A stretch of 64,000 nucleotides of DNA from Nitrosopumilaceae archaeon (GCA_965207375.1 OZ242274.1:1440001-1504000), one strand, 5' to 3'; counted from the stretch's first letter, positions 4,064 through 34,880 are shown. The notes: generated by a model not told the origin, from the letters alone. A program made the numbers and translations.

Positions 4064-4135
4064 AGGCCTGTTGTTTAGTAGAAGAACGATTGACTGAAAA
4101 TCAATAGGTCACGGGTTCGAATCCCGTCAGGTCCA
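4064..4135 (+). tRNA. tRNA-Phe(GAA), atypical
   Basis: Anticodon arm ATTGA-CTGAAAA-TCAAT; T arm ACGGG-TTCGAAT-CCCGT; acceptor AGGCCTG/CAGGTCC with A1:C72 mismatch; D loop lacks GG. Confidence 0.8.
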
Positions 4136-4577
4136 CGCCTTACCTAATGTCGTACAAATTCCTTGATCAAGGATTTTCTAAAATAACCAAAAATCGAGTA
4201 AATTTAACATCTAGCCTTAATTTTTTGGTACAAACTCAGGTCGTAAATTTTTCAGCCACAAAATTTTCACATATGTTCAAAAACTACATAGAATCAGAGG
4301 TGACCTGAATATTTGCTTGTTTGCATTGGTACTTGGAGAGTGGAATCTTGTAGAACTTGGATTACTGCCATCATCTAATTTACTTGATCGTGGCACATAA
4401 GATTACGTATATTCCCGCCGTGTACTTAAATAATTGATTAAATCAATATGGATATGGAAAATGAAAAACCAAAAGAAATCAAAAAAGCACCAGAACGACC
4501 GTTTTATGGTAGTCAGGAACAACCCACACGTACCGCTCCAGATGGTTCATCTAGCCAAGGACCCATCAAAGGTAAAC

Positions 4578-5111
4578 CTAGACCTTCAAGTAGTTAAAAT
4601 TATTTCTTAATTTTTCAAGTGTGTTTTTAATTTCTTTTTTCAATCTTACTTCGTTGTTGTCCATCCAGTCATAGTATGGATAGGATTTTCTCGGAACCGG
4701 ATCAGTGGGATTTTCCATCTGTATCTCCTGCGTTATTTTTAAGAATTTATTATGCATTTTTATTCTTTTGAATATATCTTGCACTGGCTGTTGTAATTTT
4801 GGCTCTAGACGATTTATTGCTCCTGAAAATATCAAACTATCGTAAACATCATGATTAAAATCCCTGTTGATGAAATATGCCTCTTTATCATTCTGATTCG
4901 AGTCCTTTATTTTAACCATATATGCATCATCTAGATGTTTTTGACCATCTAGACTTTCTAGCGTATCTTTTAACTCCAAGTATAGATTTTTTGATGCCTG
5001 TTTTCTGTCCTTATGTCGGTCAAAGAAATATTTGCCCGCTGAAATACCTATGGCCACAATAGTTACAAGAGATGCGAAAGATTCTATGGTCATATAATCA
5101 AAAAACTCCAT
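4578..5111 (-). CDS. Hypothetical protein with N-terminal membrane anchor
   Basis: 177 aa; hydrophobic segment FASLVTIVAIGISAG. Confidence 0.6.
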   Translation of the reverse strand: MEFFDYMTIESFASLVTIVAIGISAGKYFFDRHKDRKQASKNLYLELKDTLESLDGQKHLDDAYMVKIKDSNQNDKEAYFINRDFNHDVYDSLIFSGAINRLEPKLQQPVQDIFKRIKMHNKFLKITQEIQMENPTDPVPRKSYPYYDWMDNNEVRLKKEIKNTLEKLRNNFNYLKV

Positions 5112-5350
5112 TCAAAAATTTCAATTTCCAGTAATATAAAAAAATTCGCAGAATTGTAATCGTACGTACATACTCAAGTCGCCTCTGATTCTATGATATA
5201 GTTTTTGAACATATGTGAAAATTTTGTGCCTGAAAAATTTACGACCAGAGTTTGTACGGTTCTAGATAATAGCATAACCCAAATTTTAGTGGAGTGGACC
5301 CCTTGTTTTAGTACCACTTTTTACACTAATTTCCGAATTGATTTTAACCG

Positions 5351-5610
5351 TCATTTATTTGTCTCCCACCGTGATGCAAATTCAGCAAATGTGATATATC
5401 TCCGAGACGAGTGAATTCTTGTCGTGTTATAATTCTCAAAGGCATCAGATAGGACAGGTTTTGCATCCTGGTACTTTTCAAAATAATGTGGTCAGATGTA
5501 CACTTTTTTGAATGTCTTGTGAAATGACTCTACATGACCGTTTTGTTCGAGTATTCTTCCAGATGAATTCATGCTTGCCGATTACAAGTATAGATACTGC
5601 CTTTCTAAAA
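5351..5610 (-). pseudogene. Degenerate IS3/IS481-type (rve integrase) transposase 3' fragment, copy 1
   Basis: Minus strand reads approximately EQNGHVESFHKT...YNTTRIHSSR; direct repeat of 7612-7871. Confidence 0.7.
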
Positions 5611-5769
5611 AGTTGTGCAGATTATGATATATTGTATCTGGATTGCTTGAAATGACGATAACTCAAAATAAACCTATTCGTACTGGTTACAGGATAAACA
5701 AAAACGAATACAGTGTGATAACACACTTGATGGGGATTGAACGATACGCAAAATCTTAGTCACATATGT

Positions 5770-6381
5770 CTAGAAATCAGCAGTCCTGATATTTTTGATT
5801 TGTAACGGAGTTACCTTCTGATGATTTCGAATTTCTTCAAAATCTCCATCAAAAGTCCAAAATTCGTCACATTCCATCTCTTTTGCTAACAACACGTGTA
5901 ATGCGTCATATGATGCAAGAGATTTGTATGATGTGGTAGGTATTCTGCCCTTATTACATTTCTTGCAATAATCATGCGTTTTGATTGTCCCCCTTACCGA
6001 ATCCAAAATTAATTGTGCATCTGTTAGCAGTTGATTCATGTCAATGCTTTTCTTGACCTGAAAGATTATTTTGTTTTCCATGCGTAATAACTCCTCTAGT
6101 ATTTTTTTATACATAGACGAGGATTCTTTAATGACATGGTCTACTCTGTTAGTGACATCTGGAATTGCCAACAGTTTGGATTTGTCCTGCCCTACTCTAT
6201 TTTTAAGTACAGCCATGATCTCGATCAGGACAAGAGCAGAAACTACACCCTCTATATGGCCCTCTTTTATTTTGTCAAATACCTGATCCGCTAGTTTTGT
6301 TTGTGTTCGATTGCTTTCAAACCCAGTAATTTTTGCAAGAAGTATATTGGAATCCAAATATACTCTGATCAATCTAATCAC
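5770..6381 (-). CDS. PIN-domain (VapC-like) RNase toxin
   Basis: VYLDSNIL, SALVLIEI, YDALHVLLA and FWTFDGDF PIN motifs. Confidence 0.85.
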   Translation of the reverse strand: MIRLIRVYLDSNILLAKITGFESNRTQTKLADQVFDKIKEGHIEGVVSALVLIEIMAVLKNRVGQDKSKLLAIPDVTNRVDHVIKESSSMYKKILEELLRMENKIIFQVKKSIDMNQLLTDAQLILDSVRGTIKTHDYCKKCNKGRIPTTSYKSLASYDALHVLLAKEMECDEFWTFDGDFEEIRNHQKVTPLQIKNIRTADF

Positions 6382-10205: not shown

Positions 10206-10268
10206 ATGGGCGATGATGAGACCACACATCTGAATCAGTATGATTGATTCCATTCATTCTGAGCCCAT
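10206..10268 (+). ncRNA. Box C/D sRNA-like unit 1
   Basis: ATGGGC stem, box C ATGATGA, guide GACCACACAT, D' CTGA, C'-like ATGATT, guide GATTCCATTCATT, D CTGA, GCCCAT. Confidence 0.85.
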
Positions 10269-10344
10269 CATAACCTACTTTCACAGAAACATCTTCTGCT
10301 ATTAAATTTGTCCTTTCAGATTTGTAAAAATTCCACTAAACAAC

Positions 10345-10409
10345 ATGGGCTATGATGAAGAACAGTCGTTCTGAAACCAGATGATTCACGATTTGCAATC
10401 TGAGCCCAT
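10345..10409 (+). ncRNA. Box C/D sRNA-like unit 2
   Basis: Same scaffold; guides AGAACAGTCGTT and CACGATTTGCAAT. Confidence 0.85.
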
Positions 10410-10484
10410 CACACCCTTTTCACAAAGAATCATTTTCTCTATTAAATCTGCCGAACAAAACTTGTAAAAATTTCACTAAACAAC

Positions 10485-10555
10485 ATGGGCTATGATGAAG
10501 TCAATCAGCTGAACAATCTACAAATGTAGAGACCCGCGGCTGAATCTGAGCCCAT
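10485..10555 (+). ncRNA. Box C/D sRNA-like unit 3
   Basis: Same scaffold; guides AGTCAATCAG and GACCCGCGGCTGAAT; C'-like ATGTAGA. Confidence 0.8.
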
Positions 10556-10631
10556 CATAACTTGTCTTCACAGTAACATTTTCTATTATTAAATTTGTCC
10601 TTTTAGACTTGTAAAAATTTCACTAAACCAC

Positions 10632-10696
10632 ATGGGCGATGATGAGACCACACAAACTGACTTCTGTATGAAGAATCATCCCTGGTCTGAGCCCAT
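10632..10696 (+). ncRNA. Box C/D sRNA-like unit 4
   Basis: Same scaffold; guides GACCACACAAA and ATCATCCCTGGT; C' ATGAAGA. Confidence 0.85.
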
Positions 10697-10770
10697 CATA
10701 ACCTCATTTTCACAGAACTATTTCTGCTATAAACTTTCCATAATGAAAAACAATTACAATATTTAATGTA

Positions 10771-10865
10771 AAGTGAGCGGCGATGATGAACGCGTGCAAA
10801 TCATATCCGATGAGAGACGGAAATGTTGATGCCTGACTCGCCGAGAGTCCCTGAGCCGCACACTT
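10771..10865 (+). ncRNA. Box C/D sRNA-like unit 5 (divergent, longer)
   Basis: Different terminal stem AAGTG-a-GCGGC / GCCGC-a-CACTT enclosing ATGATGA...CCGA...TGATG...CTGA. Confidence 0.75.
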
Positions 10866-10919
10866 CTCTCAACTTTCATTTCTTTCTTTTTAAACTTTGT
10901 AAAAATTACACTAAACCAC

Positions 10920-10984
10920 ATGGGCAATGATGAGACCACACAAACTGACTTCTGTATGAAGAATCATCCCTGGTCTGAGCCCAT
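10920..10984 (+). ncRNA. Box C/D sRNA-like unit 6 (same guides as unit 4)
   Basis: Scaffold and both guides match 10632-10696. Confidence 0.85.
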
Positions 10985-11136
10985 CATAACTTGTCTTCAC
11001 AGTAACATTTTCTATATCTAAACCTGCCGCAACCACAGGTACAATTTTCGTTCTTTGCAAGAACAAGCCCAGTGAGGGTTAATTACAAGTCAAACATCGC
11101 AAGCCGATTTTGGCTAAATTTACAAAACTTACGCTC

Positions 11137-11646
11137 ATGACTACAAAACGAAACCAAAAAATCACCATTGATGGTAAGGAATACCTAAAACGAGACGTAT
11201 GTAGATACGTCAAGGATTTCTCTGGAGAGATAGATGATCTCATCCTAACACCATGTGGTACAGGTCAGTCAGCCATAAAAAACTACGACGATGAAGTCGT
11301 GGCAACTGTTGACACAGACTGCATCCGAACTTTACTCGGTGATACCATACCGATTGAAGGTTTGGAGAGTATTGATGACAGACGTCAAAGGAAGGAATTT
11401 ACAAAAACGACACAAGTTGCTACAGGGAATTGGCACTCATGCATAGCAGATGAGAAAGGTAATCTACCTGATTGTGACGTGTGTCAATCATATATTCCAG
11501 AAAGCACATGGATAAGCCTACATAACATGTTGGCCGAATCTCTGGAAGATTCTATGATTGTTACCTTGCGCGACGAGTATGTCAAAGGACTAGATGATAG
11601 TCTACGATTCATTATAGAGTCCGAAGCTGACCGACGAGGATTGTAA
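11137..11646 (+). CDS. Hypothetical protein embedded in the C/D array
   Basis: ATG at 11137; N-terminus KITIDGKEY...VC resembles KINVDGKQY...VC of the ORF at 16646; followed by a T-tract. Confidence 0.75.
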   Translation: MTTKRNQKITIDGKEYLKRDVCRYVKDFSGEIDDLILTPCGTGQSAIKNYDDEVVATVDTDCIRTLLGDTIPIEGLESIDDRRQRKEFTKTTQVATGNWHSCIADEKGNLPDCDVCQSYIPESTWISLHNMLAESLEDSMIVTLRDEYVKGLDDSLRFIIESEADRRGL

Positions 11647-11720
11647 AATCCTCCCCCTTTTTTATTTTCAATAATGATTATTTCTTTTTCAAATCAATTT
11701 TCAAAATTTTACTAAACCAT

Positions 11721-11784
11721 ATGGGTGATGATGAACCGGCAGTCGATTTGATCTCGATGATGAAAAGCCAGAGTCTGAGCCCAT
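11721..11784 (+). ncRNA. Box C/D sRNA-like unit 7
   Basis: ATGGGT/GCCCAT stem; ATGATGA, ACCGGCAGTCGAT, TTGA, ATGATGA, AAAGCCAGAGT, CTGA. Confidence 0.85.
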
Positions 11785-11971: not shown

Positions 11972-12048
11972 TTTTTTGTGACCTGACAAGTCTTTTCAAA
12001 TCTCACAGTATCCCGTATGGGGCTGACAGGCAGGTGAGTGTGGAAAAG
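11972..12048 (+). ncRNA. Structured RNA motif, copy A
   Basis: TGTGACCTGACAA...CTTTTC...CTCAC...CTGACAGGCAG-GTGAG-TGTG-GAAAAG. Confidence 0.75.
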
Positions 12049-12064
12049 ATACAACGTGATTCAA

Positions 12065-12229
12065 ATGTACAAAAACAAAGAACTCGTAGCATCTGAGCTT
12101 GTTGAATCTAACATTCTCAGATCAGACTCTGGTTTCCTCCAGGGAATAATCACCCATGAGGAACTCACAGAGATTGACAAGTTGATGGATGAAGCATTCA
12201 TCGACTTTGACATTTTGTGTCGGGAATAA
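12065..12229 (+). CDS. Small hypothetical protein
   Basis: 54-aa ORF directly after RNA motif A. Confidence 0.5.
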   Translation: MYKNKELVASELVESNILRSDSGFLQGIITHEELTEIDKLMDEAFIDFDILCRE

Positions 12230-12246: not shown

Positions 12247-12324
12247 TTTTTTTGTGACCTGACAAACTTTTCAAACCGGCATTATCTGATGTATCAGACT
12301 GACAGGCAGGCCGGTGTGGAAAAG
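12247..12324 (+). ncRNA. Structured RNA motif, copy B
   Basis: Inner stem CCGGC/GCCGG; hairpin TCTGAT/ATCAGA. Confidence 0.75.
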
Positions 12325-12333
12325 CAAGCAACC

Positions 12334-12744
12334 ATGAAAAAAAGACAAAAAATCAAAATCCCCATCATGGATGCCCTAAAAAAGACAAAAGAACGACTAT
12401 TCAAAATACAAAACGCTGTATTTTGGGGTATCGTTGTAGTCGGTACAGGAATGAGCATAACCGATTCAATGGTCGAAAAACCTATTTTTGTTGACGGCAT
12501 AGCCTTTATTATTGCTGGCTTCGTAGGTTTGATAATGTCTTGGATAACTGCTGATGTTGCAAAAAGTCTTACCGAAAAAATCGAAAAAGTCGGTCAAGAA
12601 ACCAAAGAGGAAATTCGCAAGGTAGGTAAAGAAACCAAAGAGGAAATTCGCAAGGTAGGTACCGCAGTTGAAAAACACATGGAAGTATCTATAAAACAAA
12701 CTGAGATCCTGGAGAAGATCTTGCACAAACTTCCAGACAAGTAG
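12334..12744 (+). CDS. Two-TM membrane protein with coiled-coil tail, copy 1
   Basis: Two hydrophobic helices, then ETKEEIRKVG repeats. Confidence 0.8.
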   Translation: MKKRQKIKIPIMDALKKTKERLFKIQNAVFWGIVVVGTGMSITDSMVEKPIFVDGIAFIIAGFVGLIMSWITADVAKSLTEKIEKVGQETKEEIRKVGKETKEEIRKVGTAVEKHMEVSIKQTEILEKILHKLPDK

Positions 12745-12763: not shown

Positions 12764-12853
12764 TTTTTTGTGACCTGACAAACTTTTCAAATCCGTTAAT
12801 ATCGAGTATAGCGCAAGCTGTATTTGGCTGACAGGCAGAACGGTGTGGAAAAG
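12764..12853 (+). ncRNA. Structured RNA motif, copy C
   Basis: Inner stem CCGTT/AACGG; GNRA hairpin TATAGC-GCAA-GCTGTA. Confidence 0.75.
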
Positions 12854-13108
12854 CAAGCAACCATGAAAAAGATTCAAAGAATCCGAAACTCCATCATGGA
12901 TGCCCTAAAAGAAGCAAAAGACAGACTGTTCAGAAAACAAAACACACTATTTTGGGCCATCGTTATAACTGGTCTAGGAATGAGCATCGTGGGTTTAATT
13001 TTCGATGTGCGATTCCTTGTTGACCAGCTAAGCGAAATATGATTCAGATTCTTTGTCACAGTAGATTTTGGCCTATTTTGCCAACATTTCGCTTATGTTT
13101 GACTTGTA

Positions 13109-14269
13109 TCAATCTCTAATTGCTTCAGCTATTTCTTTACATACAAATATTTTACTTTTGTATTTGTTACTTATCTCATCTAGTATTTGTACGTCAATTA
13201 ATCTCTGTACAGCATTTTTTGCCGATGGGTAAGTTATGCCTAAATAATCTGCGGCTTTTGGAATTGTTATGAATGGATTTCCTAACAAATAATCTATCAA
13301 CAAGACCGCACTTCCACTAACACGTTGTTTTTTCAAAGTTTGTTTGTATTTTTTTTGAAGAGTTAACAACCTTTGAATATTTTCAATTGCCTCATCTGCC
13401 GTTACCGTTATCGCATGTAAGAAAAACATCAACCATTCTTTCCATTTACTTTGTTGACTAATGGCCAACAATCCTGCATAATACCTGTCCAAGTTTTTTT
13501 CAAAATATGCACTCAAATACAATAAGGGTTGAGAAAGCAAACCTCTTTCTGTTAAAAGTAAAGGAATCAACACTCTTCCAATTCTTCCATTTCCATCTAG
13601 AAAAGGATGTATAGCTTCAAATTGATAGTGTAGAATTGCACATTGTAGAACTACTGAAAGATTTTCTGGTGGTTTTTGTAGAAATTCTTCTACTTGTTCT
13701 AATAATGATACAACATATTCAGGTGGTGGGGGTGTATATACGGAATTTTCAAGGGTATCACCATATCTGACTATCCAATTTTGAACTGTTCTAAACGATC
13801 CTGGATTTTTATCTCCACCTCTGACCCCCATCATCAATATTTTGTGAGATTCTCTTATCATTTCTAAATCTATTTTTCTTCCATCTTTGATTATCTCCTT
13901 GATTTTTTCTTGTAACACTTTCACATAGTTTCTTACCTCTTTCAACCGTAATCTTTCTTCGTCTTCTTGACGAAAACTTCCTACTACCTCATATTGTAAT
14001 AGATCAGTCATTGATGCTAATGTTCCCTCGATTTTGGAACTTAATACGGCTTCCCGAGTAAGATAGGGTCTAATCAACACATGTGGATTTGGAAGTAAAT
14101 CACCTCTTCCTTTTAATTCCGCCAATTTTCGTTCTGCATGAACAAGAGACATTACTAAATCATCGTCATATTGTATTTCTGGTGGTATTTTATTAGGAAT
14201 AAAGGTCTCATATCCTTTCGTATTTTTTATTATTTTGCCGTTAGGATTGGTAAAGTCACTTTTATTCAT
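13109..14269 (-). CDS. fic: Fic-family protein (Fic_N + Fic + wHTH)
   Basis: HPFLDGNGRIGR catalytic motif and EAVLSSKIEG inhibitory-helix motif. Confidence 0.95.
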   Translation of the reverse strand: MNKSDFTNPNGKIIKNTKGYETFIPNKIPPEIQYDDDLVMSLVHAERKLAELKGRGDLLPNPHVLIRPYLTREAVLSSKIEGTLASMTDLLQYEVVGSFRQEDEERLRLKEVRNYVKVLQEKIKEIIKDGRKIDLEMIRESHKILMMGVRGGDKNPGSFRTVQNWIVRYGDTLENSVYTPPPPEYVVSLLEQVEEFLQKPPENLSVVLQCAILHYQFEAIHPFLDGNGRIGRVLIPLLLTERGLLSQPLLYLSAYFEKNLDRYYAGLLAISQQSKWKEWLMFFLHAITVTADEAIENIQRLLTLQKKYKQTLKKQRVSGSAVLLIDYLLGNPFITIPKAADYLGITYPSAKNAVQRLIDVQILDEISNKYKSKIFVCKEIAEAIRD

Positions 14270-14469
14270 TCACTGCACCGTTTTCTGGTCATTATAGTTT
14301 CTTTAATGAAATATTTACAAATTAAACATATTGCCATTTTTCTTTAATCTAAGATGTTTTACTATTAAAACTTGTTGGCTAAACAGCTAAGCGAAATGTG
14401 GGCAAAATAGGCCAAAATCTACCCCAAAAATGCAAACAGATCAATAGAGGCGGCTCCAGATGATTTTCA

Positions 14470-15606: not shown

Positions 15607-15890
15607 GATTTGGGCTACATTTCGCTTAGCTGTTGACGGCATAGCCTTTATTATTGCTGGTGTCGTAGGACTGATAATGTCTTGGATGACTACCGATGTT
15701 GCAAAAAACCTCACCGATGAGATCCGCAAGGTTGGTCAAGAAACCAAAGAAACCAAAGAGGAAATCCGCAAAGTAGGTACCACAGTCGAAAAACACATGG
15801 AAGTAACTGTGAAACAGACAGAAAAACTAACCGAGATCCTGGAGAAGATCTTGCACAAACTTCCAGACAAGTAGGGCATCAAATCCCGTA

Positions 15891-15980
15891 TTTTTTGTGA
15901 CCTGACAAACTTTTCAAATCCGTTAATATCAAGTATAGCGTAAGCTGTACCCGGCTGACAGGCAGAACGGTGTGGAAAAG
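15891..15980 (+). ncRNA. Structured RNA motif, copy D
   Basis: As copy C with a GTAA tetraloop. Confidence 0.75.
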
Positions 15981-23347: not shown

Positions 23348-23374
23348 AATCTACAACCAAAGGAGGTAGATATA

Positions 23375-23893: not shown

Positions 23894-23897
23894 TACC

Positions 23898-25394: not shown

Positions 25395-25916
25395 ATGACC
25401 ATAACAACTATAGCACAAGCAAAAGCAAATCTAAAAGGAAGCATAGAGGCAACCGTAATACAAGAGACTCAGATCAAAGAGGGTCAAACAAACGGTAAAT
25501 CGTGGAAAAACAAACGCTACACATTACAGGATGATACCGATACGGTACAAATCACGTTATGGGGAAATGACGTTGACCTGTTAAAAATGAATTACAGATA
25601 CAAACTGACAGGCGGTTGGTGGAAGGAGTTTAGCGGTACAGTACAGTTAGATGCAGGCAAATATCTTAAAATCCAACAGATAGGTGCACCTGCAAATGAA
25701 GCCGTACAGAATATACCAGATATAAAAAACATATTTGCTGATTACTTTGAACCCAAAGTCAAGGGTATAATTGAGGCACAAACAGAAAATCTATACGCCA
25801 TACATTATGCCGTACTAGACAAACTAAAACAGTATGAGCAAGCTCCGGACCCACAACTAGTGCAATTGTTTACCCGAATTATTTACGGTAATCTTGAAGC
25901 TGCAAGACGAAAATAG
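25395..25916 (+). CDS. OB-fold single-stranded DNA-binding protein (RPA/SSB-like)
   Basis: LQDDTDTVQITLWG...GGWWKEFSGTVQL archaeal SSB pattern. Confidence 0.85.
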   Translation: MTITTIAQAKANLKGSIEATVIQETQIKEGQTNGKSWKNKRYTLQDDTDTVQITLWGNDVDLLKMNYRYKLTGGWWKEFSGTVQLDAGKYLKIQQIGAPANEAVQNIPDIKNIFADYFEPKVKGIIEAQTENLYAIHYAVLDKLKQYEQAPDPQLVQLFTRIIYGNLEAARRK

Positions 25917-25937
25917 TTTTCCAAAAAGGAGGAGAAA

Positions 25938-26204
25938 ATGAAAAATACAGTAATGAAATTTGTCCATGTAAAATGTATGGACTGCCCGTATGATGACTAT
26001 ATCTGCATAGCACAACCAGGACATTTGGCAGTAGGCCAGATTATACATCTTGGAGAAAAATGCTACTGCGGTTCATATCGAGTACGGGTAATAGGACATG
26101 ATGGTTTAAAGGCAGTAGAACACAACTATGCCAAATGTGGACTGCCATTTGACCGTGAAGAATTTTTAGATAGCATAAAGTCACAGATGCTTGAAAACCA
26201 ATGA
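25938..26204 (+). CDS. Zn-ribbon hypothetical protein
   Basis: CMDC...CYCGS; AGGAGG SD. Confidence 0.6.
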   Translation: MKNTVMKFVHVKCMDCPYDDYICIAQPGHLAVGQIIHLGEKCYCGSYRVRVIGHDGLKAVEHNYAKCGLPFDREEFLDSIKSQMLENQ

Positions 26205-26815
26205 GTACAAGACGTATAGCAAGAAACATTGCAATAAGTGTGGTAATCATGGTCTGCTTTGTTATACTAGCACCTATAATCAGCACCCATGTCACACCTA
26301 CAGTATATGAACTTGTAGAAACAGGCATAAAAGAAATAGACAATACCGGCAGGAACATGACACCAGATGGAACAACACAGATATGGTATAACAGAGCTGA
26401 TGCAACTGAAATATCTGAATCAGTCTCTTCTACAAATCCTGACAAACCTAAATTTGGTAAAAGTACGGCAGGCAGTATAGGGCGTATTGTAGATGGTGAC
26501 ACACTAGATATCAACGGTCAAAGAATACGACTTGCACTAGTTAACACACCTGAACGTGGAGAAGCCGGATATGAAGAGGCAAAAATATACCTCAACGCAA
26601 AGTGTCCGGTTGGAAGCACGGCAATTTATGACCCAGATGATACACAAAAGCCGTCTTATGGCCGAATAGTTGCAAAGGTATGGTGTGTTCATTCAACTAG
26701 TGAAATATCTGTAAATGAGATGCTTGTATTATCCGGACATGCACAAATATTAGATTCATTTTGCAAACAAAGTGAATTTGGTAGAGAATCTTGGGCCCGC
26801 AGCAGCGGTTGCTAG
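26201..26815 (+). CDS. Membrane-anchored thermonuclease (SNase family)
   Basis: IVDGDTL...RIRLALVNTPE...YGRIVA...VNEMLVLSGHA. Confidence 0.9.
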   Translation: MSTRRIARNIAISVVIMVCFVILAPIISTHVTPTVYELVETGIKEIDNTGRNMTPDGTTQIWYNRADATEISESVSSTNPDKPKFGKSTAGSIGRIVDGDTLDINGQRIRLALVNTPERGEAGYEEAKIYLNAKCPVGSTAIYDPDDTQKPSYGRIVAKVWCVHSTSEISVNEMLVLSGHAQILDSFCKQSEFGRESWARSSGC

Positions 26816-26866
26816 ATTCAGGTAAACTATGGAATACAGAATTGTCCTAGATGGGATCACGATATA

Positions 26867-27202
26867 ATGGAATATCCAGACAAACTGAGTGATTCCCAAA
26901 AGCTGGTATTTGTCAAAACCATGTCAGAAAAAATGCATTACAAACTGTCTACAATGACAGTTGGTGACATTAAAAATTTCTGGAATAATACTGACAGTAA
27001 CATAAGAAAACTGTTACTGTATGTGTCACTTGACAAAAAGTTTGTAACGAAGCTCTGTCACAAACATGCCGATTCGCTCAAAGATTTAGTCAGAGATGTA
27101 ACTATACATGATTGGAATGATTCCAAGTATAAAGACGTCTTTGATCTAGATGAGATATTTGGCAAAATAGCGATACAAGACTGCGATTTACCGTACAGGT
27201 AA
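26867..27202 (+). CDS. Hypothetical protein
   Basis: 111-aa operonic ORF. Confidence 0.6.
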   Translation: MEYPDKLSDSQKLVFVKTMSEKMHYKLSTMTVGDIKNFWNNTDSNIRKLLLYVSLDKKFVTKLCHKHADSLKDLVRDVTIHDWNDSKYKDVFDLDEIFGKIAIQDCDLPYR

Positions 27203-27211
27203 GGAGGTATC

Positions 27212-28042
27212 ATGGCACACGAACTAGAAAAATCAAAATCAGCCAACGTAAACGAACAGCTGAAAAAAATAGTAGATGCATTCTCAACTGAGAAATTCCC
27301 AGAGGTCTTATCCACTACATACATCAAATCTATGGGCAAGCCAATTGAAAACTGGAGTTTTGGAAACAAGATGATTGCAATGTTTGAAGGTACTACAGAT
27401 GCTAGAACCTACAATCAATGGCACAAAGTAGGACGACATCCCAAAAAGGGTTCAAAGGCGTTTTACATTCTTGCACCAAATACGTACAGAAAAAAGGAGA
27501 TCAATGCAGAAACAGGTGCAGAAGATACTGTGACTGTAATGAAAGGGTTCAGGGGCATGCCAGTATTTAGATTCGAAGATACAGAAGGTGCGAGTCTTAA
27601 GGTATCAAAGGAGCCAAAATTGCCGCCCTTAATGGAGGTGGCAAAACACTTTGGTGCAGATGTAAGATTTGAGGCAAAAACTGACGGTGCCTATGGCTAT
27701 TTTGCACCGCGTACAGACAAGCCTCTGATTGTACTGTGTAGTGAAGACCCTACAATATTTTTCCACGAATTGACCCATCTGGTACACCATGTGTGCATAG
27801 AAAAACTAAAACCCGGACAGGACCAAGAACAAGAGACAGTAGCACAACTTTCTGCCTGTGTTCTAGGAGCAATGTACGGTATAGACAATATGGCATTTAG
27901 CTGGAACTATATTGCAAACTATGCAAAAACCAACAAACCCGAAGCCGTAGGTAGAGTATGTCTTAAGGTGCTATCTAAGGTACAAAAAATCCTAAAGATA
28001 ATTCTCGAATTTGAAGAAAAGTCAAAGGAGGCGATGTCATGA
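27212..28042 (+). CDS. ardC: ArdC-like ssDNA-binding antirestriction protein with zincin domain
   Basis: WSFGN...TYNQWHKVGRHPKKGSKA...VFRFEDTEG; HELTH metallopeptidase motif. Confidence 0.75.
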   Translation: MAHELEKSKSANVNEQLKKIVDAFSTEKFPEVLSTTYIKSMGKPIENWSFGNKMIAMFEGTTDARTYNQWHKVGRHPKKGSKAFYILAPNTYRKKEINAETGAEDTVTVMKGFRGMPVFRFEDTEGASLKVSKEPKLPPLMEVAKHFGADVRFEAKTDGAYGYFAPRTDKPLIVLCSEDPTIFFHELTHLVHHVCIEKLKPGQDQEQETVAQLSACVLGAMYGIDNMAFSWNYIANYAKTNKPEAVGRVCLKVLSKVQKILKIILEFEEKSKEAMS

Positions 28043-28602
28043 AAACAAAAATTCCAAAAGAAATACCCAAAGTACAACACACTACGACTCAAATTCCAAA
28101 CGATGTTGCCTTAACATGTGCACAATGTGACAAAAGTTTGATAAAAGGAACAGAGCCCATCTATGTTATACAGACAGAAAACAAAGATATTTTCTATCTT
28201 TGCAAACCCTGTGTTCAAATATGTGCAGAGAGGGCAAATACATGAATGTCAAAGAAATCCTAAAACTGACACAAGAGGTAAAAATCAAACCTCGTGCGAC
28301 ACTTGAAGAGGCCGTTATTAATTTAACAATCCAAAATGAAACCTTGAAAAAAGCCTTGATTGAACTCCAACTAAAATTACAGGATTCAAAAAAATGGTTT
28401 AATGCAAAAGAGTTTTCTAATCTGGATGATGAATTGGAGAATGTCAAAGCATGACCTTTGATGAAATTATCGAAGACATTGATTGGAAACTACAGAATCT
28501 ACTAGAGACTCTAGACGGTGCAAAGTTCAAAGAGGAAATAGAAAAGGCAAGAGAGCAACTAGATACCATCTTGGTAAATATTCATTATGGTGACGAGATA
28601 CA

Positions 28603-28809
28603 ATGAGTCATAATTTATCCGGATGTAACGGCAACGCATTTGCAATAATGAGTAGAACGTCTAAACTGTTACGAGATGCAGGTGTATCAGAAAAAGAAAT
28701 TGATGATATTATACAGCAAGCAAAAAGCCGAGACTATGACAATCTGTTAAGGGTCTGCATTGTATCACTTGACAAACACCTGACAGGTGATTCAAAAAAT
28801 GCTAGTTAA
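28603..28809 (+). CDS. Conserved small mobile-element protein
   Basis: GNAFAIM...DYDNLL motif. Confidence 0.65.
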   Translation: MSHNLSGCNGNAFAIMSRTSKLLRDAGVSEKEIDDIIQQAKSRDYDNLLRVCIVSLDKHLTGDSKNAS

Positions 28810-29788
28810 TTATACAAAATACTCTTTACTGTCGTAAATGTTCAAAACGACAGGAAAAGGGTATCTGGTGTCCACAATGCAACAGCCGTCTAAGAAATTC
28901 TAGGAGGTTTAAACGAGATGCCCAGTTACGATGATGAATCCTTGCATTCTCGATGCAAAAAGTGGTTTACACCAAAGCGCATGTGGTGTCCTGACTGTAA
29001 ATGTCGCTGTAGAAACGGACCTCGTGATAAATGGAAGAAACAAAAATTTGAGCAGAGAATGTCTCAAAACGACAAGCCAAAATGAGGCAGTAAAATCTGG
29101 AAAAATCAAAATGGAGGAGATATAATGACAAACCATAAAACAACACCAGTGATAACTCTTTGATTCGAGTACTTTCAAGGGAGCCTTTTCGCTCTTGTGG
29201 CAAAGATTATTTCAGAATAGGGGGCCATCTGATTGAGGCTGAATCAATGTCTGATTTGGCAATTAAATTAGATGATACAGATGATTATCCAAAATGCCCC
29301 GATTGTCATGGTAGTGTCATCTGGGCAGAAGCAGGAAATTCATCTGGTACTTGCATGTGCAAGGACTGTGACAGTTACTTTGCAGATTCGGCACATCATG
29401 CAAAAAAAGATAAACTATAATCACAAAGGAGGAAAAATGAACACACAATATCCAGACGAGATCCCAAATGATTGCACATTGTGGGAATCAGGTTGGGACA
29501 AAATAGTCATCATAGATGATGAAAATCTCTCAAACAAAGAAAAGATACAACACATCAAAAAGGCAGCAAAAGAATGTGGTGGTCAGATATATACACTGAC
29601 TGATTTTACAGATGAGACCGACAGCTACCTGTTTTCAAAAGGTATACGGTTTTCAAACCGACTCGATACATACATGGTAGTATACAGACACAACTACACA
29701 GTATGTCATGAATGCTAAAATTACATCCTGTCATGAACCCACAAGTAGAACAAACAATATCCATTATCGAATCTTTTTTTAAGTAGAT

Positions 29789-29935
29789 ATGGACATAAAG
29801 AACATGACAAATGCAGAAGAGATAGATGACTTGACTCTAGAGGAGATCAAGGCCATTGATGACTATTATGCAGACGATACAAACAAGATAGTATTCAATA
29901 CCGCGGAAGAACTTATCCGTTGGTTAAATGAGTGA
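29789..29935 (+). CDS. Putative short antitoxin
   Basis: MDIKNMTNAEE...FNTAEELIRWLNE*; acidic; overlaps the toxin start. Confidence 0.55.
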   Translation: MDIKNMTNAEEIDDLTLEEIKAIDDYYADDTNKIVFNTAEELIRWLNE

Positions 29936-30206
29936 CACATGAAAGTGGAGATTTAAAATCAAAACACAGTTCAAAAAACAATACAAACGCCTTGATGGTA
30001 CAATCCAGAAAAAAGCAAACCAAGCAATATTAGAGATTCGAAATTCAGAAAATCCAGTATATCTTGGAAAATACAAGCAAAGTAAAGGGGTATTCACATA
30101 CGAGATTGGAACCAAATATCGCATCATGTACAGTATAGACTGGAGTAATCACACCGTAGAAATTCTCTGTGTATGTGATCACAAATCAGTTTATGGTAAG
30201 GATTGA
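29928..30206 (+). pseudogene. RelE/ParE-family toxin with in-frame TGA at codon 5
   Basis: MSDT*KWRFKIKTQFKKQYKRLD...YRIMYSID...EILCVCDHKSVY. Confidence 0.75.
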
Positions 30207-30296
30207 GACTATCCTCTCTGATAAACCTAGACTGATTCAATCCCCGTTAATACCACGAGTAATTCGACACTGAAAAGTTATACTAGGAGGTAGAAA

Positions 30297-30707
30297 ATGA
30301 GCAAACTAGAAACTGACATTGAGGATCTCAGAACACAGGTCCTAACCATTGGAAAAACAATAGAAAAAGGTACAACACACAAACTCGAAAGGCCGTTTAT
30401 TGATAGTATCATATGTACCCTGCAATACTTTGGAGCAGATGATGCACAACTGAAAATGGCATCATTTGATCTGCACTTTGCAAAATACAAGATATACGAC
30501 TGGCTTGCAATGTGCTGTAACGGCCGAATGGGTGATGACCCTGCAGTACAGCTTGTCATATACAATATGGCAAAACTGTACATTACACAAAAAAATGTAG
30601 GAGGTTTTGCATGGTGGCTCCGTGGTCACGACCTAGACGTTGAGGCACCTGCAAGATGTCAAGACTGTATAGAATCATACAAAAACTGGAAGGAGGAGAT
30701 ACAATGA
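30297..30707 (+). CDS. Hypothetical protein
   Basis: AGGAGGT SD; 136 aa. Confidence 0.65.
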   Translation: MSKLETDIEDLRTQVLTIGKTIEKGTTHKLERPFIDSIICTLQYFGADDAQLKMASFDLHFAKYKIYDWLAMCCNGRMGDDPAVQLVIYNMAKLYITQKNVGGFAWWLRGHDLDVEAPARCQDCIESYKNWKEEIQ

Positions 30708-32764
30708 GTGTAAAAATATCAAAACCCGTAATTAGAGAAGAAAAGGCATGCGAAACAGGCCTTGATGTATCATATGCAGAAAAGCTAAACCAGGCAGTGG
30801 GAACAGACGGACTTATCCCTGTACAACTCGAACAAGACGTCATTATCAGCAGGATTTCACATGACCTGTATGCCAATCCACAGTCAGGTGTAAGGGAATT
30901 ACTTGCAAATGAAATCAGGGCATGTCAGGAGACTGCATCAGAACATGACGCAAAACCACGTATCGAGGTATCTATAAACCATCAAAATCGAGAGTTTGTC
31001 ATACACGGTATAGATTCCAAGGGTATCGAGCAAGAAAGATTCCTAGAAGTTCTAGCAGTCCTTGGACGCAGTGACAACTTTGACCGTAGCAAGCCCGGAC
31101 AATTTGGCATGGGATTTGCCTCATATACCTGTCTGTCTGATATTGTTTTTATCGAGACATTTGCTAGAAACGGCGACAAGTACAGCGTCATGGGAAAGGG
31201 TGGCATGGGATTTCAAATCCTAGACAAGCCAGAGATGACACATTACGGAACAAAACTCCGCATGACTTTGAACAAAAAGGTCGACATTGATAAAATAACA
31301 AAAACCATAGAGGCATGTGCAACGTTACACGGTATACCTACAACACTAAACGTGACAGAAACATCTGGAATCACAAGATGTGTTGTTATACAACAAAGGA
31401 AACTAGAGGACTTTGTAAATACCCAAACTACCACAAACTCTGAGAGAAAACATCGTACACATCATGCAGTAACACTTGAAAACGAAAACATCGCAGCCTG
31501 TATGCGGTTTTCAAAGCATGGTCATTATGGTACACCAAAGATACATACATTTCTAGCAGGTATGCCAATAGAATTTACCTACACTGGTAAACATGGTGGC
31601 ATCGTTGAATTGGCAATCAACGTCAAAAGAGAGGATATTTTTACACCAACACCAGACAGAGAAAGATTCACAGAAGAATCATCAAGCCTGATAAGAAAAG
31701 AGTTAGATGGATTAGTAGATGCAAAAATCTCTGAAATAAAGGTAAAAGGGATTTCAGAGTATATTGAAAATCCAGAGACCATATTGATTGATGGTGCAGG
31801 TGGAAACATTGAGATTGATGAACAAACACTAGACATCTCAAGACTAGTCAATCGGAGCCGTCATACAAATGAGCGTGATAACTGGATACGTCTAAACGAC
31901 ATAAAAGACATACAAAAGTGCCTTGTCACAAAGTCACTTACAGCAAAAAAGATAGCAGCAGTCAGAAACTATGATTCTGAAATTAACGTAGTTAGAGCAG
32001 ACGATAACACTGACTATGAAAACATGATGTATCATGGACTGACAGACCTAAACGCATACATCAAAAACCACAAAATAAAGGTGGATAACACCAAGAGCAA
32101 AAAACGAATGCGTGTATTCTACCTCCAACCGTACTCTTATGGAAGATACAAGGAAACTTGTACCTCAGATGATCTTCCAGAGGGGACGATCATAGTAGGT
32201 GATGCATTTGATGTATTGTGTGGCATTGCAGCGATACAGCGGGGAGTAAATGACACTTACCACCTTGCTGTAAAGGCTAAAACTGCATCAAGTGGAATTA
32301 CTTTGGAGCAGTTTATACATGAATCAGGCAGATATCTATACAACACCAATATTGGCATAATGACTGCTGCACAAATACGAGACTGCAAAAAACCTGTGGT
32401 AATAACAGACCAGACCTTTGGGAGTCTATTTGGTTCACATAAAATCATAGTGAGGAAAAACCAATATGCTTTCAGACTCGCAGTCGTATTGAATAACCAA
32501 TTCCAGGATCATATACTGTATCGTGATCTCACACCAGAAAACATCAATCAGTTACAGTTGATGTTTCCAAACAAAAATCTAAAAGATCACACAGATGGCA
32601 AAACACTAGACATGATAAACTATACGCCATACATACAAAGTGACATCATCAAAAAATACATACCGCGTTTGTTTGATTTGACATCTTACTATCAAGAATC
32701 GATGCTTGAGGTGCTGATGAAAATGGACAAAGAAATCATGGCTTTAAAAAAAGACCATGAATGA
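30704..32764 (+). CDS. GHKL (Hsp90-like, phage rIIA-like) ATPase-domain protein
   Basis: LYANPQSGVRELLAN, DSKGI, GQFGMGF and GTKL GHKL motifs. Confidence 0.8.
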   Translation: MSVKISKPVIREEKACETGLDVSYAEKLNQAVGTDGLIPVQLEQDVIISRISHDLYANPQSGVRELLANEIRACQETASEHDAKPRIEVSINHQNREFVIHGIDSKGIEQERFLEVLAVLGRSDNFDRSKPGQFGMGFASYTCLSDIVFIETFARNGDKYSVMGKGGMGFQILDKPEMTHYGTKLRMTLNKKVDIDKITKTIEACATLHGIPTTLNVTETSGITRCVVIQQRKLEDFVNTQTTTNSERKHRTHHAVTLENENIAACMRFSKHGHYGTPKIHTFLAGMPIEFTYTGKHGGIVELAINVKREDIFTPTPDRERFTEESSSLIRKELDGLVDAKISEIKVKGISEYIENPETILIDGAGGNIEIDEQTLDISRLVNRSRHTNERDNWIRLNDIKDIQKCLVTKSLTAKKIAAVRNYDSEINVVRADDNTDYENMMYHGLTDLNAYIKNHKIKVDNTKSKKRMRVFYLQPYSYGRYKETCTSDDLPEGTIIVGDAFDVLCGIAAIQRGVNDTYHLAVKAKTASSGITLEQFIHESGRYLYNTNIGIMTAAQIRDCKKPVVITDQTFGSLFGSHKIIVRKNQYAFRLAVVLNNQFQDHILYRDLTPENINQLQLMFPNKNLKDHTDGKTLDMINYTPYIQSDIIKKYIPRLFDLTSYYQESMLEVLMKMDKEIMALKKDHE

Positions 32765-33081
32765 AACCGGAATAAAACTTTGGGCAATTACTACAACAGA
32801 CAAAAAACATACAGATAGAGGCTGACATCCTTGCAGGGTCGTACAAGTCAACAATACTCAAACTGTGCACATATCTCAAGTCGATAAAGCCTATACGGGA
32901 GATAAAAATGCGTGATACTTGGATGTCGTATCTGTTGTATGGTACAACAGACTATACCAAAGATATTTGCAAGTCCGAGATATCGGCACATCAACATGTC
33001 TTGTTGCATTCAAGCTGAATGTACAGACTACATCTGTGAGAAGATACGTATCCCAATTTCCTGAAACTAGGAGGTAATCTA

Positions 33082-33369
33082 ATGGAAAAAATACACTACT
33101 ATGCAGACGCAGGCCATGGCTGGCTCAGAGTACCTGTAATAGAACTGATACATTTGAAAATACACAAAAAGATAACTATACACTCGTACATGAGAGGCAG
33201 ATGGGTATATCTTGAAGAGGATCTTGATGCAGTAACCTACCTTGATGCAGTAAAATTACGCCCTAAAATTGTACAGCATGTATCAGATGGTTTTAGCACA
33301 ATACGCAAATTTGATTCGTTTAATGTAGAGAATTGGTTACAAAAAAACGAATTGGAGGTTATATCATGA
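33082..33369 (+). CDS. Conserved phage-type hypothetical protein
   Basis: DAGHGWLRV...YLEEDLDA. Confidence 0.7.
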   Translation: MEKIHYYADAGHGWLRVPVIELIHLKIHKKITIHSYMRGRWVYLEEDLDAVTYLDAVKLRPKIVQHVSDGFSTIRKFDSFNVENWLQKNELEVIS

Positions 33370-33620
33370 CTGAAATGAACAAAAACGGTATAGTACAGTA
33401 TTTACACTGTGCAAAATGTATGCAAGAGATTCCAGATGGCTGCGTGCCTGCACTGTATCAGCGTGTCAATGTCGGATTTACCGTCAAAGGACTCCAGATA
33501 TGGTGTGTACGTCACGGAATCAATGTACTGCATGTGGACTTTGAGGGTGTAAAACATCCTGTAGACCTTACTGCTGGCAAGCCAGAAATGCCTGAATCTG
33601 TCTGTGAGGAACTCAGATGA
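33366..33620 (+). CDS. Conserved hypothetical protein
   Basis: HCAKC...GFTVKGLQIWCVRH. Confidence 0.65.
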   Translation: MTEMNKNGIVQYLHCAKCMQEIPDGCVPALYQRVNVGFTVKGLQIWCVRHGINVLHVDFEGVKHPVDLTAGKPEMPESVCEELR

Positions 33621-34066
33621 GTCCTGACAGGATACCAGATGAGTCTGAAAAAAGGACTCGAAAAGAAAAGATCAGAGACCATGCAGAGGTAATCATCAAA
33701 AGGCCCATGGGTTGGTTGTTTATGGTGTTTGTGTACTTTGGGACATTTCTGATTATAATTGATGCCCCAAATACATGGCCTATAATGCAGGATCTACCCA
33801 TATTCGGTGTCTTTATTATTCCAGGGTTCGTAGGAGTAATCATGTTGCTGGTAACAAAGCAAGAGGTTAGAGAGATACGCGGTCGTTTTACCAACATAGA
33901 TGCAAAACTTGATAAAATTGATACAAGGCTTGAGAATATCGAGAAAACAATGGATACAAGGCTTGAGAATATCGAGAAAACAATGGATACAAGGCTTGGT
34001 ACAATAGAAAAGACACTCGTCTCAATGTATCATTTGTTAGATGAACGTCTGCCAAAACGTGTATAG
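33617..34066 (+). CDS. Two-TM protein with coiled-coil tail
   Basis: Two hydrophobic helices; DTRLENIEKTM repeats. Confidence 0.75.
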   Translation: MSPDRIPDESEKRTRKEKIRDHAEVIIKRPMGWLFMVFVYFGTFLIIIDAPNTWPIMQDLPIFGVFIIPGFVGVIMLLVTKQEVREIRGRFTNIDAKLDKIDTRLENIEKTMDTRLENIEKTMDTRLGTIEKTLVSMYHLLDERLPKRV

Positions 34067-34070
34067 GTGA

Positions 34071-34370
34071 ATGTTTATGCTGTTACTGACACAAAAAGAG
34101 GTTAGAGAGATACGCGGTCGTTTTACCAACATAGATGTAAAACTTGAAAACATCGAGAAAACACTGGACACAAGGCTTGGTAGTATGGATACAAGGCTTG
34201 GTAGTATGGATACAAGGCTTGGTAGTATGGATACAAGGCTTGGTAGTATGGATACAAGGCTTGGTAGTATGGATACAAGGCTTGGTAGTATGGATACAAG
34301 GCTTGAGAATATTGAAAAGACACTCGTCTCAATGTATCATTTGTTAGATGAACGTCTGCCAAAACAATGA
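34071..34370 (+). CDS. Tandem paralog lacking TM helices, with expanded heptads
   Basis: Six 21-bp repeats (GSMDTRL) at 34171-34305. Confidence 0.65.
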   Translation: MFMLLLTQKEVREIRGRFTNIDVKLENIEKTLDTRLGSMDTRLGSMDTRLGSMDTRLGSMDTRLGSMDTRLGSMDTRLENIEKTLVSMYHLLDERLPKQ

Positions 34371-34694
34371 CGTTATCTGCAAAGATACTTGTCAAAATTT
34401 TTGAAAGATTAACAGAACCCAAATCAAAGAGAGCACTCAGACGGCTATACAAAGAAAGCAGTCAAGCAGGAAGAAAGGCGTGACTATACAGCACACCACA
34501 AACAAAAAAAATCCTAGAATCATTTCCAAAAGTGGCTGATACTTATGACACAAGTATCTGCACATTTGTAATGGTTCTAGACAATTTAAAACAAAACAAA
34601 TGCGAGCAATTAATCAAGCTCGTACTACATGGTGGAGGAGATGCAAAAAAGGCACTACAATTTAGTGCTGTATACTCCAACCATAGCAGGGAAA

Positions 34695-34880
34695 TCCCCC
34701 TGATGAATTTGTGATATTGTACTGTTCTCTGAAAAATGGGAATTACATGTCATAAATGCTCCGTGAATCTAACACGGGGTTGACCGGGTCCTATATAGGG
34801 TCTGTGTCGAAACTCAAAGATGTATTTTACATCGGTGCAGTATCAGATGTTTTACATCTGTACTGCCTTTGAGTCGGGGA
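34695..34880 (+). ncRNA. Hammerhead ribozyme variant 2 (type I, branched stem II)
   Basis: TCCCC-CTGATGA...GAAA-CTCAAAG/CTTTGAG-TC^GGGGA; GUC triplet ending 34875. Confidence 0.75.

Follow-up and report, generated by a model that had tools for sequence, protein, structure and literature searches.

The stretch of DNA considered here, hereafter the window, comprises 64,000 nt of contig C1 from a Nitrosopumilaceae archaeon (GCA_965207375.1, OZ242274.1; C1:1440001–1504000). Between ~10.2 and 34.9 kb it carries three kinds of structured RNA: a tandem array of box C/D guide RNA genes, five copies of a ~70-nt leader, and two expanded hammerhead-like motifs (Table 1). The three recur together, in order and on one strand, in related archaea; their helices covary, and some of the guides are complementary to the rRNA of the source genome. 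We consider it fairly probable that this region is one member of an accessory island family, plasmid- or virus-like in character and organized by the three RNA devices. As judged from sequence comparison, the C/D, leader, and hammerhead RNAs are the conserved kit of that family. An annotation made beforehand without database searches (the sequence-only reading) had proposed that RNA-level control is a central strategy of a mobile element at 4064–34880. The linked and covarying C/D RNAs, leaders, and hammerheads support this in part; of the features that had been counted with them, the tRNA-like gene is probably not part of the kit, and the additional hairpin-rich spacers are not supported. The tRNA-like gene, C/D units, leaders, and hammerheads all lie on the + strand, as had been noticed.

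The assembly consists of four contigs (4.30 Mb). As C1 (2.16 Mb) holds the rRNA operon, amoA, and 46 of the 60 predicted tRNAs, the source is an ammonia-oxidizing archaeon. Genomes used for comparison were numbered (G061, G014, G039, etc., G000 being the source genome) and belong to the family of the source archaeon unless stated otherwise.

A tandem array of C/D guide RNA genes

Box C (RUGAUGA), box D (CUGA), and a terminal stem of 5–6 bp were present in all seven units of the window (a–g), and boxes D′ and C′ with guides of ~10–13 nt in five of them (a, b, d, f, and g). The seven C/D guides announced by the sequence-only reading are thus recovered at 10206–11784, five of them canonical, c without box C′, and e divergent. 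Six of the seven are closed by an ATGGGY/RCCCAT terminal stem; these six are preceded, at a distance of ~20 nt, by a TATA-like TTGTAAAAATT and followed by a conserved stretch. The array is laid out as tandem repeats of ~140 nt holding full C/D small RNAs (sRNAs). Units f and g are separated by an ORF (open reading frame) of 178 aa (11110–11646; sub-threshold Pfam match to FrhB_FdhB_C), for which no homolog was found in the G061 or G014 islands.

In an alignment of 12 units (five of the seven from the window and seven of the 11 from G061), boxes C, D′, C′, and D were invariant and the guides variable. The terminal stem covaries between the two genomes, AUGGGC/GCCCAU in the window corresponding to GAGGGC/GCCCUC in G061. 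These 12 units also served as input for a covariance model (CM), R1, which recovered five of the seven window units, unit e not being among them. A family-specific pattern had six matches in the 4.3-Mb assembly, all of them in the window, and none in the reversed control. A pattern specific for the stem of the window had no match in 400 other family genomes; it was too narrow, as it missed G061, whose terminal stem differs. In IMG/VR, a 16-nt D-box/flank pattern hit five loci, all by chance and without box C, and a 24-nt promoter/C-box pattern matched no metagenome contig.

Scanned for C/D RNAs in general, the whole assembly returned 11 candidates, five of them from the window array; the host therefore has few other recognizable C/D sRNAs. 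It does have genes for fibrillarin and Nop5, the latter (C1:979628) being the sole Nop-domain match. Weak matches to Rfam sR35 at 29202–29256 and 34922–34979 were rejected as C/D units; box D and the terminal stem are missing from them. Two loci elsewhere on C1 belong to the same class of RNA. A single-copy C/D sRNA at C1:685801–685847, with the D guide GATCTTGAGTT, is kept in 9 of the 17 genomes of genus g20; its guide has no rRNA match of at least 9 nt, and the gene looks like a core guide owned by the host. Unit b has a decayed counterpart at C1:139892–139956, where the flanks are kept and box D and the terminal stem are mutated; it is probably the relic of another copy of the island.

Complementarity of the guides to rRNA

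As guides we took the 12 nt that precede every box D or D′, which gave 23 distinct sequences for the window and G061 together. Four of these have a Watson–Crick match of at least 10 nt to the 16S or 23S rRNA of the source genome, a number reached by none of 5,000 shuffles; the sense-strand control gave zero. In the large subunit (LSU) rRNA, positions 2073–2084 are matched by the D guide of window unit a and by three D′ guides of G061, positions 864–875 by window unit b and a unit of G041 (11 nt), and positions 2551–2562 by two G061 units. In the small subunit (SSU) rRNA, positions 905–916 are matched by three G061 units, and a G016 guide overlaps them in a shifted register. The rRNA of G061 itself has identical target sequences. 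The methylation target of a C/D RNA is the nucleotide in the fifth pair upstream of box D or D′, and by this rule the predicted targets are LSU A2077, C868, and A2555, and SSU C909. We take A2077 to be equivalent to E. coli A1969 in helix 71, A2555 to A2451 in the peptidyl-transferase loop, and SSU C909 to C970 in helix 31.

The target regions lie in or near published hotspots of archaeal rRNA methylation, that is, helices 35/35a, helices 68–71, and the surroundings of the peptidyl-transferase center (PMC7994747; here and below, papers are cited for those parts of their text that were available). Of 121 genomes, only G000 and G061 have a guide for helix 71 that sits in a C/D context; the same pattern in four other genomes sits in coding-like sequence without C boxes and was discarded. 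Among tRNAs there was a single match of 10 nt, between a G061 guide and tRNA-Asp, and inside the window the guides matched their own antisense and a few places at chance level. Two further ideas were dropped: a search for host C/D genes by rRNA complementarity alone, which was swamped by chance (486 hits), and the notion of unit e as a mimic of the rRNA sequence targeted by unit b, with whose guide complement it has only 8 nt in common.

Constant scaffolds with variable guides in an array-like layout might also be expected of an RNA-guided conflict system in the manner of CRISPR or TIGR, directed against competing elements, host defense, or mRNAs. Most guides have no stable-RNA target, one series of G061 guides differs at two to three positions between units, an ArdC-like anti-restriction gene is located in the island, and TIGR arrays with Nop-domain effectors are known from phages and archaeal viruses (PMC12045711). 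However, the assembly encodes no Nop-domain (Tas-like) protein besides the host Nop5, the units are ~140 nt long with C, D, C′, and D′ boxes rather than 36-nt dual-spacer units, those guides that have matches hit rRNA, and the non-rRNA targets of guides of 10–12 nt are indistinguishable from chance. A conflict system is therefore quite improbable in our estimate.

A covarying leader RNA

The five structured leader copies that had been recognized in the sequence-only reading were found both as repeats and with a second model, CM R2 (E values from 4e-18 to 5e-21). Across 13 copies from four genomes, the leader is ~70 nt long and contains the invariant 11-nt loop CUGACAGGCAG. Helices P1 and P2 were first proposed by inspection of this alignment; 92.1% of its cells are paired, and both sides change in 9 of 11 pairs. 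None of 500 shuffles matched the pairing or the covariation score, and slid controls were only 28–45% paired. RNAalifold arrived at P1 and P2 independently; it further predicts an outer helix (P0), in which compensatory changes occur, and a 3-bp hairpin inside the invariant loop. Upstream of every copy there is an oligo-T run and a near-invariant GTGACCTGACAA. As a known ribozyme or riboswitch the leader was rejected; no Rfam family matched it at E ≤ 10.

Leaders 3–5 and their ORFs are recent duplicates (88–96% identical). A Fic cassette and a neighboring insertion sequence (IS) with a DDE transposase interrupt the leader array. The Fic gene is flanked by 35-nt inverted repeats (97% complementary; 13061–14422), and the IS beside it (14382–15634) has many copies elsewhere in C1. 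The Fic cassette and the IS elements are independent insertions.

With CM R2, clustered copies on one strand were detected in 10 of 150 other family genomes (two in G014, five in G061, eight in G016, nine in G028, four in G041, two in G063, eight in G176, two in G094, and one each in G035 and G130). In a class-wide sample, 12 of 108 genomes of the source family had matches, and across 42 genomes from eleven other families a single weak one was obtained (E = 7e-5). The model is a practical marker for an island family that otherwise goes unannotated and most of whose proteins have no family match.

Expanded hammerhead-like motifs

The two variant hammerheads suspected earlier, H1 and H2, do contain CUGAUGA, GAAA, and the cleavage triplet GUC together with stems I and III; cleavage is predicted after position 18391 in H1 and after 34875 in H2. 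Their elements follow the order stem I 5′ strand, CUGAUGA, hairpins A and B, UU, stem II, GAAAC, stem III, GUC, and stem I 3′ strand, and minimum free energy (MFE) folds reproduce this five-way layout (z scores −4.4 for H1 and −5.6 for H2). Stem II closes with a G…C pair directly before GAAAC and abuts G12; it is parted from A9 by the two hairpins and UU (47–54 nt in the H1 type), so that helix II does not join A9 and G12 directly into a three-way junction.

A loose hammerhead scan of the genome gave 45 hits, compared with 28 in the reversed genome, which is not significant alone; in G061 and G014 the scan picked up eight homologs. Stems I and III are fully paired in every one of the 10 copies (window, G061, and G014), with covariation at four of five positions of stem I and three of five of stem III, and RNAalifold recovered stems I, II, and III from four H1-type copies. 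The core (CUGANGA, GAAA, A15.1-U16.1, and H17 other than G) is present in 10 of 10, but because the scan required these letters, the count shows that homologs exist and not that the core is independently conserved. The same core was seen in five further copies from G176, G028, and G041, at GC contents of up to 65%. The motif also occurs in simpler forms: three compact copies of G061 have only UU between A9 and stem II, and G041 and G028 have canonical hammerheads of 51–64 nt. Expanded copies in GC-rich relatives (59–65%) keep the three-hairpin layout.

A GGGAA(A)UCCC hairpin lies upstream of the expanded hammerheads (18267–18278 and 34689–34699; also in G176 and G041). It can sequester the 5′ strand of stem I and is the preferred fold in the MFE structures of G176 and G041; from these folds, it may be a conformational switch controlling cleavage. 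Just 3′ of H1, in the same spacer, is a long near-perfect hairpin (18424–18470). When 10 spacers were tested for structure, the two bearing hammerheads had z scores of −7.2 and −6.9, and the other eight ranged from −2.2 to +0.4; the claim of further hairpin-rich spacers is accordingly not upheld.

It could be argued that these motifs are relics or non-canonical forms, the hammerheads being dead and serving as terminators or protein-binding sites, and the units with orphan guides being decaying duplicates. The insertion lies beside A9/G10.1, and core insertions are reported to cut activity (PMC3088659); there is no Rfam hammerhead match, 19 of the 23 guides are orphans, unit e is irregular, the unit at C1:139892 has decayed, and an IS and the Fic cassette already disrupt the leader array. 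Nevertheless, all 10 copies picked by the scan have the core letters and stems with compensatory changes, and the core reappears in the five copies of G176, G028, and G041. Boxes C and D stay invariant in 12 aligned units while the guides vary, and several genomes have guides in common, placed in different slots. Decay is in our judgment a very unlikely explanation.

Linkage and distribution of the island family

Among four same-genus genomes searched at the DNA level, colinear matches were found in G061 and in a 14-kb contig of G014; G039, which is 96% complete, had no match to window 4001–44000. At the protein level, window ~12.2–34.1 kb is syntenic with G061 (~43 kb) and with the G014 contig. 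The order in G061 is 11 C/D units, three compact hammerheads, five leaders, two H1-type hammerheads, the syntenic genes, and two H2-type hammerheads. G176 (GC 40%) has one C/D unit, nine leader cores, and an H2-type hammerhead on one strand, and G041 (GC 65%) a C/D unit, a canonical hammerhead, six leaders, and an H2-type hammerhead, again on one strand. In G028 (GC 59%), a canonical and an H2-type hammerhead lie among nine leader matches, and no C/D unit was found there. G016 has C/D units beside leaders, and G014 a leader with a hammerhead. G176 and G041 represent genera other than that of the source, and the GC content of the islands ranges from 38 to 65%. As C/D RNAs, leaders, and hammerheads recur in order on one strand, they are parts of one island family. 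The suggestion that the same RNA set should be sought in relatives has therefore been borne out in G061, G176, and G041. The opposite possibility, that the RNAs stem from independent insertions, does not hold for C/D units, leaders, and hammerheads, which recur together; the Fic cassette and the IS elements are independent insertions, and the tRNA probably lies outside the kit.

CM R1 had matches in 13 of 150 other family genomes, with arrays of at least three units only in G061 (11) and G016 (4). G041 has two adjacent matches and a third, weak one beside the first; elsewhere the matches are single genes, including the conserved sRNA of genus g20. The region is polymorphic for presence and absence: G039 lacks it, and of 150 other family genomes 10 have the leader. 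Assemblies from runs X1, X3, and X4 were fragmented, with IS-related joints. In having ArdC-N-like, SNase-like, weak OB-fold, and weak GHKL ORFs, the region may be likened to the leading or early part of a plasmid-like element. That the region is a mobile element, as the sequence-only reading had it, is suggested by its patchy occurrence and its absence from G039; the part of the claim that would need a tyrosine integrase near the window, or att sites, found no backing.

Several observations weigh against an island organized by RNA. Neither a tyrosine integrase near the window nor att sites came to light, the 702-aa protein of the island had no match in IMG/VR, a 220-aa island protein had none in GenBank phages, and the replication genes at 41.8–57 kb are absent from the G061 island. 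Nineteen of the 23 guides are orphans, that is, without a match of at least 9 nt in 16S, 23S, or 5S rRNA, RNase P RNA, signal recognition particle RNA, or the pre-rRNA spacers, and of the 10 window guides just two have an rRNA match. The best Rfam C/D score in the window is 30.2, with a threshold of 40 (sR5), and all scores are sub-threshold; the Rfam C/D models are species-specific guide families, and one G061 unit reaches the snoPyro_CD threshold (45.7 versus 45). The covarying P0 overlaps the element first read as a TATA box, so that a transcription start assigned from that element, and a 5′-terminal position of the leader, are tentative. Rfam hammerhead models gave no match in the window at E ≤ 10; they also miss the canonical minimal hammerheads of G041 and G028 (E ≤ 1), and their silence on the window hence says little. 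The place at which the hammerheads are expanded, by A9/G10.1, is catalytically sensitive. The core insertions tested by Perreault et al did lower activity (PMC3088659).

The most serious competitor is a housekeeping origin: the C/D array would consist of ordinary host guides in a hypervariable, IS-rich region, the leader would be a duplicated promoter/5′-untranslated region of paralogous small genes, and no strategy of a mobile element would be involved. This would agree with matched guides that aim at conventional rRNA hotspots, with fibrillarin and Nop5 being host-encoded, with the lack of an integrase or att site, and with the recent duplication of leaders 3–5 and their ORFs; moreover, other C/D sRNAs are so few in this host that the array could be its main set. 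On the other side, R1 arrays of at least three units are confined to G061 and G016 among 150 other family genomes, the helix 71 guide in C/D context to 2 of 121 genomes, and the region is absent from G039 of the same genus. The widely conserved C/D sRNA is a different, single-copy gene (C1:685801; 9 of 17 genomes of g20), a decayed unit b lies elsewhere, at C1:139892, and the order C/D–leader–hammerhead is kept across genera and GC contents. We thus regard the housekeeping explanation as unlikely and prefer that of an accessory island family.

Proposed roles of the RNA kit

How the kit of such an island might work can be sketched as follows. Each C/D gene would have its own candidate TATA-like element ~20 nt upstream, and its RNA would be loaded onto the L7Ae–Nop5–fibrillarin machinery of the host. 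The loaded RNAs would then 2′-O-methylate host rRNA at sites that most relatives do not target, the predicted sites being LSU A2077 (helix 71 region) and LSU C868 for the window, with SSU C909 and a nucleotide of the peptidyl-transferase loop as further ones in the relatives. The ~70-nt leader (P0, P1, P2, and the CUGACAGGCAG loop) would precede each transcription unit as a cis-acting RNA signal, acting in stability, in processing, or through a dedicated factor, and the hammerheads would cut long transcripts at module boundaries. Expression, methylation, and cleavage are inferred here from the anatomy, complementarity, and covariation of the RNAs, and the mobility of the island from its distribution.

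A bolder version of this scheme, which we put forward tentatively and think rather doubtful, is that the islands carry programmable guides that rewrite the host ribosome, at helix 71 in the case of the window and at the peptidyl-transferase adenosine in the case of G061, and that the leader and the five-way hammerhead are both new. The 2′-OH of A2451 in E. coli matters for catalysis. If this version were true, the islands would carry guide arrays as a means of ribosome takeover, of addiction, or of resistance. Provided that the guides are active, an island that moves horizontally could reset rRNA 2′-O-methylation by means of short RNA genes and host enzymes, a cheap and programmable change of ribosome function, fitness, or drug or toxin sensitivity in globally abundant nitrifiers. 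This raises the questions whether accessory DNA helps to set archaeal rRNA methylation patterns, whether a large domain beside A9/G10.1 can be accommodated by a hammerhead, and what role is played by a multi-copy leader with strong covariation and an invariant 11-nt loop.

The tRNA-like gene and the surrounding genes

The tRNA claimed to be deviant is indeed so. Called by both ARAGORN and Rfam, it has A1 opposite C72 and a D-loop without GG; the GG is present in the paralogs C1:1407365 and C1:1974998. The canonical tRNA-Phe of the host is a distinct gene, C1:1921024, with an encoded CCA end. C1 holds five such paralogs, the window copy among them, and the ~360 bp upstream of the window copy (window 3704–4224) are repeated at the other paralog loci with 76–92% identity (C1:1341141, 1355894, 1407257, 1974986, and 234199), from which it follows that the whole module of tRNA plus upstream sequence was multiplied in the chromosome. 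In three other islands, ARAGORN found no tRNA within the regions examined, and G061 has a different odd tRNA at the opposite end of its island. For these reasons the tRNA-like gene, proposed earlier as a member of the RNA set, is probably a neighbor outside the conserved kit.

Pfam matches were obtained for a minority of the window ORFs only. Those at 16.6–34.4 kb are mostly on the + strand and mostly without a family match. Two adjacent ORFs, 33617–34066 and 34071–34370, are paralogs with 21-nt tandem repeats (33876–34332, up to nine copies) that encode heptad-like coiled-coil repeats. Near the left end, inverted repeats of ~85 nt (4228–4312 and 5170–5257; 88–95% complementary) enclose an ORF of 177 aa on the − strand (4578–5111) without a family match; 4228–5257 could be an invertible or transposable cassette.

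The module at 41868–63998 encodes a ParB-N/methylase ORF, a D5-type primase-helicase, PolB, an XPD-like helicase, PriL, and PriS, as well as a 1339-aa Eco57I/MmeI-like protein, a PLD-SNF2 helicase, and restriction-modification-like genes. The G061 island lacks this stretch, which may therefore be an element of its own or a module that varies. Window 46047–47376 is 96% identical to C1:346750–348081, and window 40102–40390 is 85% identical to C1:346144–346440; part of the replication-gene region thus has a second copy in the chromosome. The remaining contigs, C2, C3, and C4 (2.1 Mb together), hold only 14 of the 60 predicted tRNAs and have long microsatellite-like repeats of the GGTTCT type; canonical type-I hammerheads occur on them (e.g., C4:449766–449838 and C4:751784–751933). 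These contigs may be foreign to the archaeon and represent host or eukaryotic DNA.

Table 1. RNA features, genes, and insertions of the window, with positions counted from its first nucleotide.
Feature	Position	Strand	Remarks
IS transposase ORF	2303–3535		Pfam
tRNA-Phe(GAA)-like gene, deviant	4064–4136	+	ARAGORN; Rfam 63.4 bits
PIN gene	5770–6381		Pfam
C/D unit a	10206–10268	+	All four boxes; D guide 10 nt to LSU 2074–2083
C/D unit b	10345–10409	+	All four boxes; D guide 10 nt to LSU 866–875
C/D unit c	10485–10555	+	Long form, hairpin replaces box C′; both guides orphan
C/D unit d	10632–10696	+	All four boxes; guides orphan
C/D-like unit e	10777–10859	+	Divergent; boxes C and D, GCGGC/GCCGC stem; internal boxes irregular
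C/D unit f	10920–10984	+	All four boxes; 98% identical to unit d
C/D unit g	11721–11784	+	All four boxes; guides orphan
Leader 1	11977–12051	+	Ahead of small ORF 12038–12229
Leader 2	12253–12327	+	Ahead of ORF 12334–12744
Leader 3	12769–12856	+	Its ORF cut by Fic cassette at ~13061
Insertions splitting the leader array	13061–15634		Fic cassette and DDE-transposase IS
Fic-domain gene	13109–14269	−	Pfam
IS transposase ORF	14470–15606		Pfam
Leader 4	15896–15983	+	Ahead of ORF 15972–16379
Leader 5	16403–16490	+	Ahead of ORF 16646–17905
One-strand gene module	16646–34370	+	Syntenic with G061 and G014
Expanded hammerhead-like H1	18274–18396	+	
ORF with weak OB-fold similarity	25395–25916	+	
SNase-like ORF	26201–26815	+	Pfam
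ArdC-N-like ORF	27212–28042	+	Pfam
702-aa protein	30656–32764	+	Weak GHKL/Hsp90-N similarity
Expanded hammerhead-like H2	34695–34880	+	3′ end of the shared gene module
IS transposase ORF	36031–37068		Pfam
IS transposase ORF	37889–38998		Pfam
Replication/restriction-type module	41868–63998		Pfam

Comparison with known systems

Islands in the style of mobile genetic elements that combine C/D arrays, this leader, and this form of the hammerhead appear to be undescribed in the literature searched. With archaeal box C/D sRNAs in general, the units have in common boxes C, D′, C′, and D, the terminal stem, and guides of 10–13 nt, some of them directed to rRNA hotspots. They differ in forming tandem ~140-nt arrays on a patchy island, beside leaders and hammerheads, and in their hosts, which are mesophilic ammonia oxidizers with few other chromosomal C/D sRNAs. 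The literature searched did not tie C/D arrays to archaeal mobile elements or to ammonia oxidizers, and that on archaeal viruses, proviruses, and plasmids did not report C/D guide genes on such elements. A herpesvirus snoRNA offers a parallel, a mobile entity encoding a C/D guide for the host machinery, in the form of a single gene of a eukaryotic virus. Clustered archaeal C/D genes have been mentioned (Tripp et al, 2017, as cited in PMC12045711), and according to the text available of a 2014 review, no sRNA study for Thaumarchaeota existed at that time (PMC4152357).

TIGR-Tas systems likewise consist of tandem arrays of dual-guide RNAs on prokaryotic mobile elements, and TIGR arrays are evolutionarily linked to C/D snoRNPs (PMC12045711). 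Their units are 36-nt RNAs with repeats of 8–12 nt and spacers of ~9 nt, encoded beside the Nop-domain protein Tas (PMC12045711), whereas the units described here are full C/D sRNAs and the sole Nop-domain gene is that of the host Nop5.

Bacterial and a few archaeal hammerheads have been found near integrases and in prophages (Perreault et al, 2011, PMC3088659). Those of the island share with them the core (CUGANGA, GAAA, and H17), helices I–III, the occurrence in several copies, and the mobile contexts, and differ, in the window type, by the two hairpins and UU between A9 and stem II, which result in a five-way junction. The core insertions in that study are A6a, U13a, and G2a/C2b, and the text consulted describes none at the place between A9 and stem II (PMC3088659).

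The integrated elements of Thaumarchaeota surveyed by Krupovic et al (2019, PMC6563490) differ in that no integrase or att site was identified here, and the words snoRNA, ribozyme, and non-coding have zero occurrences in the text of that survey as available. They are similar to the island in being accessory, in having many ORFs of unknown function, and, in some cases, in encoding PolB or a primase, and the class of that survey which fits the island best is that of the “cryptic integrated element.”

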